A stretch of DNA of 51,669 bases from Candidatus Omnitrophota bacterium (GTDB lineage Bacteria > Omnitrophota > Gorgyraeia > Gygaellales > Profunditerraquicolaceae): contig JAPLLZ010000054.1 of assembly GCA_026387265.1 (NCBI GenBank), forward strand, positions 1 to 51,669. Reading direction: 5' to 3'. The translations under genes were made by a program, and so were the position numbers. Below the pieces are notes generated by a model. The model had not been told where the DNA came from and did not search any database. It was given only the letters and a program-made list of their open reading frames with translations. Shown here piece by piece: positions 22,160 through 34,805 of the stretch (position 1 is the stretch's first letter; each line of letters begins with the position of its first letter).

Positions 22160-22483
22160 TTATTTTATTCTTTTTCTTAAATGATTAACTCCTTTTACGG
22201 CAATAAAAATACAAAAAGCCACAATTAAAAAATCAATTGTCGTATTTATAAACTGCCCGTAATTCAAAGTGACTGCCGGAGCATCTGCCGTTGAAGCTTT
22301 AATTATTATTTTTAAATTTTTGAAATCTACTCCCCCTAAAAGTACCCCAATCGGCGGCATCATCACATCATTTACCAACGAAGTAATTACTTTGCTAAAT
22401 GCCGCACCAAAAACAATGCCTACGGCCATGTCGACAGCATCGCCCTTTACTACAAATTCTTCAAATTCCTTGATTATCGACAT
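22160..22483 (-). CDS. mscL: Large-conductance mechanosensitive channel (short C-terminus)
   Basis: IKEFEEFVVKGDAVDMAVGIVFGAAFSKVITSLVNDVMMP and LNYGQFINTTIDFLIVAF. Confidence 0.95.
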   Translation of the reverse strand: MSIIKEFEEFVVKGDAVDMAVGIVFGAAFSKVITSLVNDVMMPPIGVLLGGVDFKNLKIIIKASTADAPAVTLNYGQFINTTIDFLIVAFCIFIAVKGVNHLRKRIK

Positions 22484-23343: not shown

Positions 23344-24078
23344 TTATTTTAAACTTTTCCGGATAACCCTCTTTTTTTGTAAATACGCCTGACGTTTATA
23401 CTGCGGAAACCGCTCAATCGCATACCTCAACATAGTTCTAGGCATAATATGAGAGTATTTTTTTAAAAATCGTTCTTCAGCAACGCTATCTCTTTTACCT
23501 ACTTCGCGCAACATCCAACCGACTGCTTTATGGATTAAATCGTGTGGATCGCCGATTAATATTGCTGCTATTCTTAACGTATCCCTAAAATCATTATTTT
23601 CGATGAAATAAAATGTAGAAACAATGGCCACCCTTCTTTCCCAAAGCAAATCAGAACTTGCTAATTTATAAATGACGCTTCTGTCTTTATCCGCCAGAAA
23701 ATCACCGACGATATGTTTTGCTGAGACATCCACTAGATCCCAATTATTAATGTACCGGCTATACCGTAAATATGCCTTATATATTCTTTCTTTACCCAAT
23801 GAATCCGCTTTGCGGTATTTTAGAATAAAGATAAGCAAGGATAATAATCTTTCTTCATGGATTGGTGATTTCAGCAATCTTAAAACTTCATTAAAGCTCA
23901 AATCCTGGTAGCGCCAAGCTAAACTCCTCAACACCGGAGCTCTTGCTCCTAGAAAAATGTCCCCCTGGGCGTATTCTCCGCAGCCGGTTTTAAAAAACCT
24001 TTGCAAGATTTTGGCTTGCTGCCTATTACTACTTTTGCGCAATTCATATTTTAACTTTAATAAACTCATTTTCATCAC
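23344..24078 (-). CDS. DNA alkylation repair protein (AlkD-like HEAT repeat)
   Basis: FFKTG.GEYA.GDIFLG, INNWDLVD, LWERRVAIV, HDLIHKAVGWMLREVGK and MPRTMLRYAIE. Confidence 0.9.
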   Translation of the reverse strand: MMKMSLLKLKYELRKSSNRQQAKILQRFFKTGCGEYAQGDIFLGARAPVLRSLAWRYQDLSFNEVLRLLKSPIHEERLLSLLIFILKYRKADSLGKERIYKAYLRYSRYINNWDLVDVSAKHIVGDFLADKDRSVIYKLASSDLLWERRVAIVSTFYFIENNDFRDTLRIAAILIGDPHDLIHKAVGWMLREVGKRDSVAEERFLKKYSHIMPRTMLRYAIERFPQYKRQAYLQKKRVIRKSLK

Positions 24079-24093
24079 TATTGTAAAATTTAT

Positions 24094-25023
24094 TTATAAC
24101 AATTCTTCTGAATAAACATAAGTTTGCAATGCAATTCTGGCGATAAACTTTTTGGAAGCAGTAGCACTCTTATTTTTATGTTGAGTCAATACGCAAATTA
24201 TGAAATCGCCTTTACGGCTAAACATTATCCCCACATCATGGCAAACATTACGCTCTAAACCCGTCTTATGTGCAACCGTAATATTTACCGGTAGATATTT
24301 TGGAAGCCGGTCGTTTACGCGCTGCAATTTTAAAATTTTCAGGCATTTATCAGAAATCATCCTATTTACTAAATTTCTGTGATAAATCTGCTCTAATAAC
24401 CAAGCCATATCTTGCGCCGTAGTATAATTTTCCACTCCCTGGTCTCTTAAACGAAAGTCGGCGATTCTTCTTGAAAAATTGGTATTTTTTAATCCCAAAT
24501 AATTAAAAACGCTGTTTAAATAATCAACCCCGAGCATACTGGTAAGTATATTCGCTGCGGTATTATCGCTATCATAAATCATCAGGCCAATTAACTCTTC
24601 TATAGTAAAAACTGTTCCGGGCCGCACATCCTTTAACATTCCTGAGCCGGAGAATTTATCGCTATTTCTTAAAATAATCTCCTGGTCGAGATTAATCTTG
24701 CCTTCTTCAGCAGCTATAAAACAAGCCAACATAATCGGCATTTTTACCAGGCTTGCCGATGGAAATAATCTGTCTTTATTATAAGAGGTCTCCCAGCCAG
24801 TCTGTAAATCTTTAATTACAAAACCTGCTTCACCTTTAAATAGTTTTATCTCATTAGACAATTTCTGCTTGAGCCTCTCCCAAGCTGCTTTTTTTGATTC
24901 AAAAATAATCTGCTGGCGCTTAGCCTGAGCATAAGCATGATATCGAAAAACAAAATACACTCCACAAGCAAGCAATATCCCAATAAAGATAATGCCGATT
25001 TTTTTCTTATCTGTTAATGTCAT
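24094..25023 (-). CDS. Membrane-anchored serine hydrolase of class A beta-lactamase fold (probable DD-peptidase)
   Basis: SxxK (SASLVK), SDN and HKTG motifs; N-terminal TM; the omega-loop Glu166 equivalent appears absent (FSRRIADF). Confidence 0.85.
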   Translation of the reverse strand: MTLTDKKKIGIIFIGILLACGVYFVFRYHAYAQAKRQQIIFESKKAAWERLKQKLSNEIKLFKGEAGFVIKDLQTGWETSYNKDRLFPSASLVKMPIMLACFIAAEEGKINLDQEIILRNSDKFSGSGMLKDVRPGTVFTIEELIGLMIYDSDNTAANILTSMLGVDYLNSVFNYLGLKNTNFSRRIADFRLRDQGVENYTTAQDMAWLLEQIYHRNLVNRMISDKCLKILKLQRVNDRLPKYLPVNITVAHKTGLERNVCHDVGIMFSRKGDFIICVLTQHKNKSATASKKFIARIALQTYVYSEELL

Positions 25024-31189: not shown

Positions 31190-32107
31190 CTAGTATTTAG
31201 CACATAACCCGGGAACATCTTCGTGGCGAGTACGCTTAGCAGGAGACCTCTGTATGCTTTTAACAAAACAGTTACAATCAAGAACGGAGTAAGAATATTT
31301 CTTTCTTATTACTTCTTCAATTATATCGTAGACTAACCCTCCATCATAAAGATGCGTCTCGTAACATTGATAAATTTCTCCGTGCGGCATTATTTTTGAA
31401 ATTCTTTCATAATTATATTTGTTTAGTTCTATTTCTCCTATATTCAAATGTTTTACTCCAATGTCCTCAATTAAAGGAAGCATCGCAAAAAGTTTCTTTC
31501 TATGCAGCTGCCATGCCGGAGTCTCAACAGTAACAACCTTCAGATAATGCACAGCTTTTTTTAAATTATTGTATACTACCTTTGAAAAATTCGAAGCACC
31601 CAGGTGAAACCTGATTTCATCAAAACCTATTTTTTTCAATTGAGCAAGGACTTTAGAATCAGCTAAAATACCATTAGTATAAAGATAATACCATGGCTTG
31701 TGCCCACTTCGTCTTTCTATATCACGCAATACTTTCATATAACTACTTATAACATCCAGATATAAAAGAGGTTCTCCTCCGCCGCTAAAACTCATTGCTG
31801 TAGGCCTAAAGTTATTAGAAAGTGCTTGTTGCTTAAAAAGTGACGCTTTGGTTGCTAAATGCTCCTTGGCCGTCAAATTACTTCCTTGATTCTTATCAGA
31901 ATTACAATATGTACAATTCAAGTTACATTTGTTTCCGGAATAAAAATTACGAGAGGATAAATCTGGAACAAAACAATGATAGCAGCCAGGAGACAATTTT
32001 CCAATATGAGCACAATGTCCGGAGGCGTCATATATAAGTTTCTTAATTGCCTTTTGCCGCTTAAATTTTCTTTGGTAGGCTTCTTGAATTGATATTAATT
32101 TCATCAT
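31190..32107 (-). CDS. Radical SAM protein (PFL-activase-related)
   Basis: GKLSPGCYHC, CNLNCTYC (CxxxCxxC), SFSGGGEPL, YLYTNG, FDEIRFH and VTVETPA. Confidence 0.88.
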   Translation of the reverse strand: MMKLISIQEAYQRKFKRQKAIKKLIYDASGHCAHIGKLSPGCYHCFVPDLSSRNFYSGNKCNLNCTYCNSDKNQGSNLTAKEHLATKASLFKQQALSNNFRPTAMSFSGGGEPLLYLDVISSYMKVLRDIERRSGHKPWYYLYTNGILADSKVLAQLKKIGFDEIRFHLGASNFSKVVYNNLKKAVHYLKVVTVETPAWQLHRKKLFAMLPLIEDIGVKHLNIGEIELNKYNYERISKIMPHGEIYQCYETHLYDGGLVYDIIEEVIRKKYSYSVLDCNCFVKSIQRSPAKRTRHEDVPGLCAKY

Positions 32108-32445
32108 TAGCCTCAGTTAAAAGTAAAGATTGGTAGGTTTTAATATAGATTATCACAAAAGGTTAAGAAGTCAAACTTCTTCCCCCAGGATGCGAACCAG
32201 TCGCTCCCCGTAAAAGCTCCCCCCCTAAGATCCCTTTTCCCAGAGACTCGCCAAAATAAAAGACTCATCGGAAGATGAGCCTTAACAATTGGCTCCCCGT
32301 GGTGGATGAGTTTAGCAACTGGGTGCAATCGGTGGAAACGGATATATTTTATAAAATTCACGAACTTTTGCAAGTGTAAGCCAATATTTTTCTTGAATAT
32401 TGAAGATTAAAAGAGGATAATAAATCCACAATTAAAGGAGGTTGT

Positions 32446-33097: not shown

Positions 33098-33331
33098 TTA
33101 CTTTGGAACAGATGAAGAAGCAGGCTTTTTGATAACAGACCAATATATTATTGCTCCTAAAAGCTGAAGAAAAATAACTACTAAAATCCAGACAATCCTA
33201 TCATTCGGATTCTTAAACTCCCTGTTGACGCAATCAATTATCATACGTATCCAAAACACAAAGATGAAAATAACCAGTGCCGCTATACCGATAGTAAATA
33301 TCCCAGCTGCAAGAACACCTAAAATCTCCAT
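33098..33331 (-). CDS. Small membrane protein, PLDc N-terminal-like
   Basis: FWIRMIIDC...DRIVWILVVIFLQLLGAIIYW. Confidence 0.8.
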   Translation of the reverse strand: MEILGVLAAGIFTIGIAALVIFIFVFWIRMIIDCVNREFKNPNDRIVWILVVIFLQLLGAIIYWSVIKKPASSSVPK

Positions 33332-33586
33332 ATATTACCTCCCTTTTCGCTTTTTCTCCGATACTTCCAAAAAACTAGCTATCGACACTTTATAAAATGA
33401 TTATACCACTTTCATCTTAAAAATAAAACAAAAACTCCTTGCAACTATTTCGCTACAAGGAGTTAATAAAATTATTCTCCCCTTTATCAATGAATACAGG
33501 ACGGCATTAATTGACTTGCCTAAAGAAGAATTGTACGTAATCTAGTTTTTGCGAGTACACTTTAGCCAGTAAATCTTATTTTACCT

Positions 33587-34246
33587 CTATTCATCATTAG
33601 CGAGGGGACTCATTCCCACTTCTACGACATTAACATCACTTGCCGATACAATCTCAAGCACTATAGATTCATTATTCAATGGGGCTGTTGTAGTTGAAAA
33701 ATAGAAAATCCCATTCATTTTATCTCCTTCCCCACTCATTCTAACATCCTGGAAACCCATTGGCATTCCCCCAACAAAATTAGCTGCCTTATACGGCCCG
33801 GAGATCTTGACTTGCAGTATAAACTGTTCACCTGAATTCCAGATTCCCTGTGTTTGATTTAAAATAATCTGCAAGACGAAATCTTCCCCTCGTCTCTCTT
33901 TTTTATACTGATATTTATGAGATATTGCTCTTTGTTTATTAACATTAACTGTGTGAGCGGTAATGCCACCTGATTGGTTTTCACTCTTCACGATATGTAT
34001 TTCTTTTTTATTATCGTTTTCGTTCATTTTAGGCCTCCAAGGTTTATCGAAAATAAACGTTAGGATCGCCACTATGGCCGCCAAAACAAATATAATTTCT
34101 ATAATTTTTGCTGTAAGCCTCTGTGAAACAAGAGCGTTAACTACTTGATCAAAATTATTCACAGTAACGGTATGCGCGGTAATGCCACCTGATTGGTTCT
34201 TGCTTTCAACTATATGTGTTTCGCTTTTATTTTCGTTTTTAGACAT
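33587..34246 (-). CDS. Hypothetical protein with a duplicated HIVxSxNQSGGITAHTVxVN motif flanking a TM helix; probable internal in-frame start at 34027
   Basis: The motif occurs at aa 11-30 and 84-103; 23-bp identical DNA repeat at 33957-33979 and 34176-34198; GGAGG lies 6 nt before ATG 34027. Confidence 0.7.
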   Translation of the reverse strand: MSKNENKSETHIVESKNQSGGITAHTVTVNNFDQVVNALVSQRLTAKIIEIIFVLAAIVAILTFIFDKPWRPKMNENDNKKEIHIVKSENQSGGITAHTVNVNKQRAISHKYQYKKERRGEDFVLQIILNQTQGIWNSGEQFILQVKISGPYKAANFVGGMPMGFQDVRMSGEGDKMNGIFYFSTTTAPLNNESIVLEIVSASDVNVVEVGMSPLANDE

Positions 34247-34495
34247 CTACCCCCCCAAGTTCTTTCAATTACCATAAAATGATTACCCAATACACTTAAA
34301 TTATACCACTGAAATATATAAAGAAAAGAAGAAGTCGCTCAACTAAACCTTTGCTGTAGTATGCAAGGGGGATATTTGAAATGGTTTTAAAGATAGAATA
34401 ATCCTCTAGGACTACAAACCTGTCGTCGTCTGCAAGACTCCCGAAGGATGCCGCAGTAGCAAGACCCCGAAGTCCTTAGTTTACGTAATTTTCTA

Positions 34496-34556: not shown

Positions 34557-34632
34557 TCCCCCTTAGCTCAGTTGGTAGAGCGAGAGACTGTTAATCTCCA
34601 GGTCCTAGGTTCGAGTCCTAGAGGGGGAGCCA
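34557..34632 (+). tRNA. tRNA-Asn(GTT)
   Basis: Cloverleaf: TCCCCCT/AGGGGGA acceptor stem, anticodon loop CTGTTAA, GGTTCGAGTCC T-arm, encoded CCA. Confidence 0.97.
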
Positions 34633-34639
34633 AAAAATC

Positions 34640-34667
34640 GGCCCAGCGTTTTTTGCTGGGCCTTTTT
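34640..34667 (+). terminator. Intrinsic terminator after tRNA-Asn
   Basis: GGCCCAGC/GCTGGGCC stem followed by a T run. Confidence 0.85.
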
Positions 34668-34763
34668 GTTTTTAACTACTAATTTTATGTGGCAAAAGTG
34701 GTCACCGCGCTTCAGACCTATATGGTAGGATTAAATAAGTTTTCATTGCTGTATCGCGCGGTC

Positions 34764-34805
34764 TAAAATAAAACCGCCTGCTTTTAAATTGGCGGTTTTA
34801 TTTTA
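34764..34805. terminator. Bidirectional terminator-like hairpin at the end of the ABC-F gene
   Basis: Perfect 15-bp inverted repeat TAAAATAAAACCGCC / GGCGGTTTTATTTTA. Confidence 0.75.

Follow-up and report, generated by a model that had tools for sequence, protein, structure and literature searches.

The window, by which we mean the whole stretch of 51,669 nucleotides analysed here, carries on its reverse strand an open reading frame (ORF) that is almost certainly a real, conserved gene. The features of this gene and of its immediate surroundings are listed below.

33587–34246, reverse strand: full-length ORF of 219 residues (stop codon at 33587–33589), comprising motif copy 1, a transmembrane (TM) helix, motif copy 2 and a beta-sandwich domain, from homologue searches
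34157–34246, reverse strand: motif copy 1, residues 1–30, with core residues 11–29
34049–34108, reverse strand: single hydrophobic TM helix, residues 47–66, from KD scan, AF2 helix and alignment
33938–34027, reverse strand: motif copy 2, residues 74–103
33590–33934, reverse strand: C-terminal beta-sandwich (the 'SGPY' domain, C-domain class 2 of the family), residues 105–219, from AF2
34025–34027, reverse strand: internal in-frame ATG (Met74), predicted start of a 146-residue soluble form
34034–34038, reverse strand: internal Shine-Dalgarno (SD) sequence GGAGG, six bases 5' of the Met74 codon
34250–34256, reverse strand: ribosome-binding site of the first ATG, a G-run with three bases spacing
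34300–34308, reverse strand: extended -10 promoter element TGGTATAAT of the gene (a weaker overlapping consensus match is also listed)
33433–33464, reverse strand: intrinsic terminator-like hairpin of 13 pairs with a T-run, 3' of the gene
34557–34632, forward strand: tRNA-Asn (GTT), bordering the variable region in which the gene lies

The same extended -10 element, TGGTATAAT, recurs before the next gene (33400–33408). With a promoter of its own and a terminator-like hairpin behind it, the gene probably forms a single-gene transcription unit.

The original prediction, made from the sequence of the window, described a duplicated motif on either side of a TM helix, and this description is correct. 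Residues 1–30 and 74–103 are identical at 22 of 30 positions (73%), and the corresponding DNA shares 70 of 90 bases. The same codon is used for 15 of the 22 common residues, and the core NQSGGIT is encoded by 21 identical bases; a repeat search returned the two copies as a pair of 85 nt with 81% identity and 219 nt spacing. Between them the KD scan places one hydrophobic helix (about residues 47–66; AF2 helix 32–66 or 46–67), which ends, in the family alignment, in a conserved L-x-[YF]-F/I-x-x-P. Relatives from several phyla retain both copies, the helix and the start codon, so the duplication cannot be put down to chance in a single sequence. The flanks of the helix hold 2 K+R versus 5 K+R in the window protein, a charge bias that is reversed or ambiguous. 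Across the family, the net charge is +3.1 before the helix and -0.2 after it, which predicts that the N-terminus lies inside and that copy 2 and the domain of the full-length fused form lie outside the cell, away from copy 1.

The gene belongs to an undescribed, conserved bacterial family. The window protein matched nothing in Pfam, NCBIfam or PADLOC, and a full-text literature search for the motif string found no paper. One search returned 39 homologues and another collected 98 representatives; relatives occur in Planctomycetota, Pseudomonadota, Bacteroidota, Ignavibacteria-type bacteria, Hydrogenedentes and Omnitrophota. Full-length relatives are 33–63% identical and retain both motif copies, the helix and the C-domain. 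A word-based search recovered only one short relative. Pattern matches in IMG/VR viral contigs included no confirmed relative, and tblastn with the family member P0019 found no match in phage and plasmid collections.

The same parts also occur as separate genes. Seventeen other non-redundant loci are split into two adjacent genes, 12 of them at the point of the internal start. In these 12 operons a motif-TM gene stops straight after the helix and a motif-domain gene begins with an ATG at -17 to +21 nt; two show ATGA overlaps and four have an in-frame stop. The five further loci are pairs of a TM-motif gene and a motif-domain gene. In fourteen loci a TM-motif-domain gene occurs alone, without copy 1. 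We refer to the motif-helix protein as part A and to the motif-domain protein as part B. Part A consists of the motif, a low-complexity linker and one TM helix, or of one or two TM helices followed by the motif, and has no Pfam or PADLOC match; B parts carry domains of 80–250 residues devoid of NTPase or repeat regions. Split B proteins lack a signal peptide and should therefore be cytoplasmic. Motif-bearing genes are nearly always paired or tripled, either side by side or fused. The family has switched repeatedly between fused and split forms: in a tree of B parts the two interleave, well-supported branches force six to eight or more changes, and fused and split forms stand as sisters in P0020/L084 (well supported), P0019/L082 and P0025/L021.

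These comparisons bear on the nested start. The original prediction had noted that the second Met has a GGAGG of its own, and Met74 indeed follows this SD sequence, whose duplex with the anti-SD has an energy of -9.3 kcal/mol. Since the gene holds three further in-frame start codons with SD-like runs (-8.0 to -8.8), the case for Met74 rests on the comparative data rather than on the GGAGG alone. In 55 of 70 non-redundant fused proteins the stretch from the helix to copy 2 contains a Met, versus 0.40 expected (binomial p = 3e-11), and the other 15 mostly have V, L or I at this position. Start-codon statistics draw on the loci with DNA from the related-locus search; in these, all five Val codons are GTG. 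An SD duplex of -6 kcal/mol or stronger precedes the internal start in 18 of 25 fused loci, and in 17 of the 25 it is among the lowest 5% of its own gene. Loci of the Bacteroidota type lack an internal SD, as expected for that phylum. The residues that the internal SD encodes vary among loci (WRPK, KENK, LGVN, GRGK). Across the family, then, the internal start codon is conserved together with a ribosome-binding site in front of it, as in genes with a functional nested start, and Met74 is probably used. The conserved start and ribosome-binding site, together with the many relatives that are split at this position, strengthen the earlier suggestion that a 219-residue and a 146-residue form may both arise. 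From these sequence comparisons we infer that both products, one membrane-bound and one soluble, would be made.

The motif spans 17 residues, [VI]xSxNQSGGITA[HG]xVN[IV]. In 202 distinct instances the S at -3, the Q, both G, the T and the A are conserved at 97–100%, and copy 1 is conserved as well as copy 2. The motif is used as a module, and its two copies co-vary. It may stand at the N-terminus, internally or at the C-terminus, and it is followed by at least 19 different classes of C-terminal domain. An HNH nuclease and a retron NDT effector also carry it. Outside the core, motif copies are 0.337 identical within a protein versus 0.245 between proteins, a value that none of 10,000 permutations reached and to which the shared ancestry of subfamilies contributes. 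In AF2 monomer models the motif is disordered (pLDDT 37–59), and AF2 with a 67-sequence alignment of fused proteins predicted no contact between the two copies in the monomer. We infer homotypic pairing of the motifs, and lean slightly towards the view that the motif is a self-association module.

The original prediction had likened the motif to RHIM/BASS-type amyloid signalling motifs. In genetic logic the family does resemble amyloid signalling, since a membrane partner and an adjacently encoded protein share a short motif. However, the G-phi-Q-phi-G signature of RHIM, PP and BASS3 is absent from the profile of 202 instances, which reads S-x-N-Q-S-G-G-I-T-A with the Q flanked by N and S and not by hydrophobic residues, and no NLR or Bell-type partner was found. 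In particular, no long motif-bearing protein, NLR or other receptor appeared among proteins of 385–2000 residues, which is weak evidence. A core that hardly varies across phyla is no worse a sign of a specific fold or binding site than of RHIM/BASS, and we consider amyloid-type templating, which would rest on analogy, doubtful. We also set aside a reading of the motif as a double-glycine leader, since its hydrophobic register ahead of the GG does not fit.

The C-terminal domain was modelled by AF2 with pLDDT 90–98 as a generic beta-sandwich with an Ig/CBM/cohesin-like fold. Foldseek matched it to 9ifr (E = 7e-4) and 2cwr (E = 9e-4), with TM scores of 0.45–0.49 on the target, and VIA aligned it with such folds at Z = 6–7.1 (rmsd of about 3–3.6 Å over about 100 residues); scores of this size are also reached between unrelated sandwiches. 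The resemblance to CBM2/CBM3, cohesin, pilin and CLIPPER-type sandwiches is at the level of the fold and concerns the C-terminal 115 residues of the window protein only; a PDB profile search, Pfam and NCBIfam gave no sequence match. The SGPY domain also occurs with other N-termini, and in P0050, P0092, P0064, P0070 and P0052 it lies behind signal peptides and lipoboxes. These contexts and the adhesin/CBM-like fold fit an extracytoplasmic binding role. Among the other classes, the class-1 domain gave only noise against PDB sequence profiles, and representatives of most others had no Pfam, NCBIfam or PADLOC match. The ESM Atlas held no usable feature match for P0001 and led from the class-1 domain to unnamed clusters only. 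The SGPY beta-sandwich and the class-1 alpha/beta domain each represent a new domain family.

Two relatives connect the motif with known defence effectors. Locus L070, from Bradyrhizobiaceae, holds three consecutive motif genes, which encode a protein with two TM helices and a C-terminal motif, a class-1 B protein and an HNH nuclease. This nuclease matches PADLOC PDC-M68A (4e-34), CBASS effector endonucleases (7e-24) and SduA, and the same HNH domain is joined in P0084 to the C-domain of the window protein. Locus L013, from Sessilibacter corallicola, is an operon of a motif-TM gene, a motif-NDT gene (NDT_II-A, 5e-29) and the retron reverse transcriptase (RT) RT_II-A (8e-152). NDT_II-A was found in only three of 400 genomes of the same class; the other two matches begin later in the profile, and so they do not show the motif to be a general feature of the retron NDT_II-A.

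The window gene is accessory and patchily distributed, and its surroundings beside a tRNA gene vary between genomes. The island beside tRNA-Asn that the original prediction had pointed to is variable: the gene was found in two of 301 Omnitrophota genomes and in none of 11 genomes of the same genus, positions 21.3–34.5 kb of the window have almost no DNA match in five congeners, and the cargo beside tRNA-Asn is different in each of the five examined. It is the only motif-bearing gene of its genome. We also considered, and rejected, a simple integrated element. A search for tRNA-derived direct repeats gave nothing but promoter-like repeats and, at 32216–32230, 15 nt that repeat the 3' end of tRNA-Asn in inverted orientation, and no integrase turned up. 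PADLOC applied to the gene and six neighbouring ORFs gave nothing except a weak radical-SAM/pVip match among the neighbours, and no RT or NDT family matched the ORFs scanned on the island side (21.7–33.3 kb) or the ABC-F gene on the other side. Across about 55 loci the neighbours are heterogeneous, with a modest share of defence genes. No conserved partner gene was found at these loci, and an all-against-all BLAST of 320 flanking ORFs grouped only B parts that the regular expression had missed. Because the motif is found elsewhere on nucleases of defence type and on the effector of a retron, and because the gene is patchy and lies in a variable stretch beside a tRNA gene, the most likely role would be defence against phage or in another conflict, possibly by abortive infection. 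We hold this assignment tentatively, at a little under an even chance.

We propose that the gene is a member of a family of self-contained two-part modules. Part A would be a short motif-bearing tail on a membrane helix and part B the same motif on a variable globular domain; in this genome the two are fused in frame, with the ribosome-binding site and ATG of B kept inside the gene. Because these are kept, two products are expected, a 219-residue membrane form and a 146-residue soluble cytoplasmic form. The motif, disordered as a monomer, would pair with other copies of itself and thereby bring part B to the membrane, where part A is anchored. If Bab/Agp and HET-S/NWD2 are a guide, assembly might also pass a signal from the B domain to a membrane-perturbing helix. 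We put the entire line of reasoning, as far as two products that motif pairing joins, at an even chance. That the motif is a new prion-like or other self-templating element of bacterial immunity, so that dual initiation lets a single gene encode both a sensor and a membrane executioner, seems to us as doubtful as amyloid-type templating. If so, one tag of about 20 residues would link a sensing domain of any kind to disruption of the membrane or destruction of DNA.

Other explanations account for parts of these data. The protein could be an ordinary bitopic envelope protein, of which only the 219-residue form matters: the helix would be a signal anchor, the beta-sandwich would be displayed outside for binding, the motif would serve as a stalk or as a strand for oligomerisation, and the internal start would be left over, unused, from an ancestral fusion of two genes. 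The C-domains behind signal peptides and lipoboxes, the likeness of the fold to CBM, cohesin, pilin and adhesin sandwiches, the family-wide bias towards N-in and C-out and the fourteen loci without copy 1 all agree with this. However, most fused lineages retain the start codon and SD even though the residues encoded there change, close relatives interchange fused and split forms, and the cytoplasmic location expected of split B proteins without a signal peptide, like the fusion of the same C-domain to a cytoplasmic HNH nuclease, is at odds with a domain that acts outside. Copy 1 would also be left without a role, yet it is conserved like copy 2. We regard an envelope protein as improbable, and a toxin-antitoxin-like pair as slightly more so. 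In the latter the motif-TM protein would be a membrane toxin of the Hok/TisB type, neutralised through the shared motif by the soluble motif-domain protein, with no sensing role and no link to phage. Such a pair would look like the two-gene operons seen here, in which a tiny hydrophobic protein comes first and translation is often coupled through ATGA overlaps, and the patchy accessory distribution of a self-contained unit agrees with it. At least 19 unrelated C-domains, among them toxic nucleases and the retron NDT effector, are nevertheless ill-suited to a simple antitoxin, and fusion across a membrane helix would separate toxin from antitoxin if the protein is N-in and C-out.

Unlikely, but less so than these two, is that the motif docks all its carriers onto one conserved host factor, such as a protease or adaptor for which it is a degron, a chaperone or a membrane insertase, so that A and B share a partner rather than bind each other. 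A near-invariant core across distant phyla is what a conserved host partner would impose, and docking would also suit the tolerance for N-terminal, internal and C-terminal positions, the disorder in monomer models and the lack of a conserved neighbour gene for a dedicated partner. A simple docking motif would not, however, require its genes to be almost constantly paired, tripled or fused, and within one protein the flanks of copy 1 co-vary with those of copy 2. The invariance could also be explained by the horizontal spread of a young family, which is rare and patchy.

The proposed module, in which A and B pair through their motifs, resembles known amyloid signalling systems in several respects. 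The comparators are BASS1–10 and the fungal HET-S-NWD2 (Dyrka et al., bioRxiv 10.1101/2020.01.06.895854) and Bab/Agp, the BASS11 abortive-infection system of E. coli (Ibarlosa et al., bioRxiv 10.1101/2024.11.07.622273). As in these systems, a short G/N/Q/S/T-rich motif of beta type is common to the products of adjacent genes. This hallmark of amyloid signalling is seen in the 12 plus five gene pairs and in one three-gene operon; in the window both partners are nested in one ORF. Again as in these systems, one partner is very small and has a hydrophobic helix thought to act on the membrane. The other has an N-terminal motif ahead of other domains, and the motif is also found on immune effector domains, its genes lie in variable or defence regions, and motif pairs co-vary, being more alike within pairs than between them. 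Unlike the comparators, the family has no Bell, Babybell or HeLo domain, part A being a motif and a TM helix only. In most loci the motif of the small partner is N-terminal, not C-terminal, and the second partner is a small domain of 80–150 residues instead of an NLR or TPR receptor. The sequence of the window family is unrelated to the G-phi-Q-phi-G core and its motif is far more invariant than known amyloid signalling motifs. Many members are also fused into one gene with a nested start. Fungi, animals and a few bacterial systems are known to use short adaptor motifs that relay signals from one immune protein to another. The present family would be a very compact addition, in which one 17-residue tag is placed on a membrane helix with no further domain, on numerous small domains and on established defence effectors. 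It may represent a novel means of connecting defence proteins to the membrane.

Nested in-frame starts that give two proteins per gene occur in the S107/S105 holin-antiholin of phage lambda and in the long and short forms of ClpB, IF2 and CheA. As in these, the internal start of the window family is conserved with its own ribosome-binding site, and the long and short predicted products share a C-terminus. Unlike in these, the predicted forms differ by a whole motif-and-helix module, one being membrane-bound and the other soluble, and in many relatives a genuine boundary between genes falls at the same break point. The family is an unusually clear natural example of switching between a two-gene form and a single-gene form with a nested start, and should be useful for gene callers, which now report the long ORF only.

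A retron of type II-A consists of an RT and an NDT-like effector (Mestre et al. 2020, PMC7736814). The domain of the window gene is a beta-sandwich, not NDT, and its scanned neighbours include no RT or NDT. In L013 the NDT_II-A effector carries an N-terminal motif and is preceded, in the same operon, by a motif-TM gene. This Sessilibacter corallicola retron operon and the three-gene operon of Bradyrhizobiaceae offer concrete targets in cultured organisms.

The original prediction placed a repeated motif on both sides of a transmembrane helix, with a good GGAGG Shine-Dalgarno (SD) sequence before a second, internal Met. Both features were borne out. Residues 1–30 and 74–103 of the protein are identical at 22 of 30 positions, and their coding sequences at 70 of 90 bases; a repeat search returned the two copies as 85 nt at 81% identity spaced 219 nt, and between them lies a hydrophobic stretch of 19–20 residues that AlphaFold2 models as a long helix. 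All seven codons of the core NQSGGIT are identical between the copies; seven other shared residues differ in codon, so a very recent duplication and an assembly artefact are both excluded as the source of the repeat. The gene and its signals are:

33587–34246, minus strand: open reading frame of the motif gene, 219 residues
34308–34300, minus strand: extended −10 element TGGTATAAT, a sequence match
34027–34025, minus strand: internal ATG (Met74), with GGAGG at 34038–34034, six-base spacing
33464–33433, minus strand: terminator, a 13-pair hairpin

A G-run ribosome-binding site precedes the first ATG. Having its own promoter element, ribosome-binding site and terminator, the gene is a single-gene unit. 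TGGTATAAT (minus strand) also occurs, with similar flanks, at 33400–33408, before a small PLDc_N membrane-protein gene (33098–33331); this gene and the motif gene each have a separate terminator.

A word-indexed search returned 39 relatives and an exhaustive HMMER search 98 representatives. Seventeen full-length relatives (33–63% identity) keep the first copy, the helix, the second copy and a C-terminal domain. None of these had a match in Pfam, NCBIfam or PADLOC: the family is conserved across phyla yet unnamed. GTDB genomes and metagenomes of JGI supplied the relative loci L001–L087, which represent Phycisphaerae, Sedimentisphaerales, Pirellulales, Brocadiaceae, several Pseudomonadota, Bacteroidota, an Ignavibacteria-type genome and Hydrogenedentales. 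IMG/VR gave no confirmed relative, and P0019, a relative with the commonest C-terminal domain (class 1), was matched in neither the INPHARED phage collection nor the PLSDB plasmid collection.

Family members combine a part with motif and membrane helix (A) and a part with motif and variable C-terminal domain (B), either fused in one reading frame or split. In 55 of 70 non-redundant fused proteins a Met lies between the helix and the second copy, where the Met content of these proteins would predict about 40% (binomial p = 3e-11). In the other 15 the residue at this point is mostly V, L or I; where DNA was available, all five Val codons there were GTG, and two Ile codons were ATA. The anti-SD duplex before the nested codon reached −6 kcal/mol or stronger in 18 of 25 non-redundant fused loci with DNA, and in 17 of the 25 it fell within the lowest 5% of codon positions in its own gene. 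The three clear exceptions include the Mucilaginibacter genome L011, where no SD is expected because Bacteroidota, as a phylum, do not rely on SD pairing. The residues encoded by the SD region differ among loci (W-R-P-K in the window; K-E-N-K, L-G-V-N and G-R-G-K elsewhere), so it is the nucleotide signal that is conserved and not the peptide.

At 12 non-redundant loci the halves are two separate, adjacent genes. The stop of the first gene comes a few residues past the helix, and the second, starting within −17 to +21 nt, begins at the position equivalent to Met74; the junction is an ATGA overlap in two loci (L077, L084) and a single in-frame stop in four (L008, L021, L029, L073). On a maximum-likelihood tree of the commonest B part, fused and split forms interleave, with at least 6–8 changes counting well-supported branches alone. 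The fused/split sister pair P0020/L084 is well supported, the pairs P0019/L082 and P0025/L021 less so. Switching this easily would be expected of a B product that is made separately in either layout. The conserved start signal, together with 12 operons cut at that point, supports the proposal that the second copy has its own start, and two products are predicted. In the window gene three further in-frame start codons have SD-like runs, so that sequence alone is insufficient to settle on Met74.

Net charge over 15 residues averages +3.1 before the helix and −0.2 after it across the family, and the N-terminus with the first copy is therefore predicted to be cytoplasmic. This agrees with the tail-anchored A and cytoplasmic B proteins of the split operons. 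A fused full-length protein in this orientation would place the second copy and its domain outside, so that only an internally initiated product could meet the first copy. In the window protein the bias is reversed (2 against 5 K+R) and gives no orientation call.

The profile of 202 distinct motif instances reads [VI]-x-S-x-N-Q-S-G-G-I-T-A-[HG]-x-V-N-[IV]. S(−3), Q, G, G, T and A are each present in 97–100% of instances, some positions having been partly fixed by the search pattern, which left S(−3), N(−1) and the two flanking V/I free. Outside the core, the flanks of the copies co-vary, with an identity of 0.337 within and 0.245 between proteins; 0 of 10,000 permutations matched the within-protein value. 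Thus I-H-I-V-x-S occurs in both copies of the window protein and of its closest relative, and V-x-G-D-V-x-I-S in both copies of another subfamily. AlphaFold2 predicts the motif to be disordered in the monomer (pLDDT 37–59) and, given 67 fused sequences, predicted no contact between the copies.

The motif is modular, being found before at least 19 unrelated C-terminal domain classes; closely similar N-modules bear different domains (P0006, P0117, P0038). The commonest domain is an alpha/beta fold of about 85 residues (n = 74), and the beta-sandwich of the window protein is second (n = 31). Most loci have a tail-anchored motif-TM protein as the membrane partner; in five, one or two helices precede a C-terminal motif.

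In the window protein, residues 105–219 are predicted to form a seven-strand beta-sandwich (pLDDT 90–98). Its closest structural neighbours are the CLIPPER adhesin domain, CBM2/3, cohesins and Gram-positive pilins, at scores (Foldseek E = 7e-4, TM about 0.45–0.49 on target; VIA Z = 7.1 or less) that, for this predicted model, do not separate relatives from look-alikes. A sequence search against PDB chains gave no match. The domain belongs to a larger family (P0043–P0109), also unnamed. There it mostly stands behind a different hairpin, T-Q-V-N-I-G-S-P-G-S-x-Q-I-I-N-Q-Q-R, after an N-terminal helix, sometimes a signal peptide or lipobox, and once an HNH nuclease. These varied N-termini make it a portable module of binding type that serves on either side of the membrane.

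The evidence best supports a self-contained module of two products, linked by like-with-like motif pairing. A would supply motif and membrane helix and B motif and variable domain, and pairing of the motifs would hold the two together or make them signal. The originally proposed likeness to RHIM/BASS-type amyloid motifs extends to the genetic logic, which matches that of Bab/Agp amyloid signalling and of BASS/NLR pairs, but no NLR, Bell-type domain or G-phi-Q-phi-G signature, as known from those families, was found. The nearly invariant motif core agrees just as well with a defined fold or with docking onto a conserved host factor. These absences and the near-invariant core argue for a new version of the shared-motif signalling modules and not a BASS member; an amyloid mechanism, suggested by analogy, is a minority hypothesis.

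The HNH and retron effectors linked to the motif point to conflict systems. In L070, a metagenome contig assigned to Bradyrhizobiaceae by its BjrC174 sRNA (near copy L069), three consecutive genes bear the motif:

L070:2894–4991: operon of a two-helix membrane protein (C-terminal motif), a 124-aa class-1 B protein and a 428-aa HNH protein

The 428-aa protein has an N-terminal HNH domain and an internal motif. Its matches (PADLOC PDC-M68A 4e-34, CBASS effector endonucleases 7e-24, SAVED-HNH 2e-22, SduA) make it a predicted nuclease of the CBASS/Shedu effector type, and P0084 joins the same HNH domain to the window's own C-terminal domain through a related hairpin. In Sessilibacter corallicola C21 (L013, 5956–8254), an overlapping operon encodes a motif-TM protein of 75 aa or less, an effector with the motif at its N-terminus (NDT_II-A, 5e-29, whole profile) and a retron reverse transcriptase (RT_II-A, 8e-152) with an N-terminal extension of about 180 residues. 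By the scheme of Mestre et al. (PMC7736814) this is a type II-A retron; no Rfam RNA family matched in the locus.

The 130 flanking ORFs, taken from about 55 loci, show no recurring partner. A minority are of defence type (Cas8e, retron/DRT reverse transcriptases, AriA/PtuA-type ATPases, AbiLi, mad3/mad8, ShosA), an uncontrolled tally that is suggestive of a defence link; transposases are also present. In a Woeseiaceae MAG (L014:5971–7138; near copy L081), two different motif-domain genes stand behind a single motif-TM gene, and the second of them encodes a coiled coil and a zinc-ribbon-like C-terminus. Several B proteins may thus share one membrane partner.

The window gene turned up in 2 of the 301 genomes of the phylum that were sampled and in none of 11 same-genus genomes (92–96% completeness). 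Within its own 1.56-Mb assembly no other gene bears the motif. It lies in a region of about 13 kb (21.3–34.5 kb) that at the DNA level is almost unmatched in five congeners and is a mosaic of accessory genes, among them:

22160–22483: MscL gene
23344–24078: DNA alkylation repair gene
24094–25023: class-A beta-lactamase-like gene
31190–32107: radical-SAM protein, 305 aa, partial prokaryotic viperin match (PADLOC pVip 5e-8, about 100 residues)

Other genes there encode a U32-peptidase/TPR protein, an RDD protein and a response regulator; the 305-aa protein has only distant radical-SAM paralogues in same-genus genomes. No integrase was seen in this interval. An island beside tRNA-Asn is thus a fair description, a defence island a putative one; the pVip similarity of the radical-SAM gene is weak. 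In all five congeners tRNA-Asn follows an adjacent ABC-F gene in the same direction at about 27 nt, whereas in the window it is inverted relative to that gene (34557–34803). The tRNA 3' end recurs as an inverted 15-nt copy at 32216–32230, and together these suggest a rearrangement at the tRNA. The genes beyond tRNA-Asn differ in every congener examined. In the same-genus genome G284 (L095:464–3967), ORFs of 337 and 825 aa stand at tRNA-Asn where the window has the motif gene, and are another strain-specific cargo at this site.
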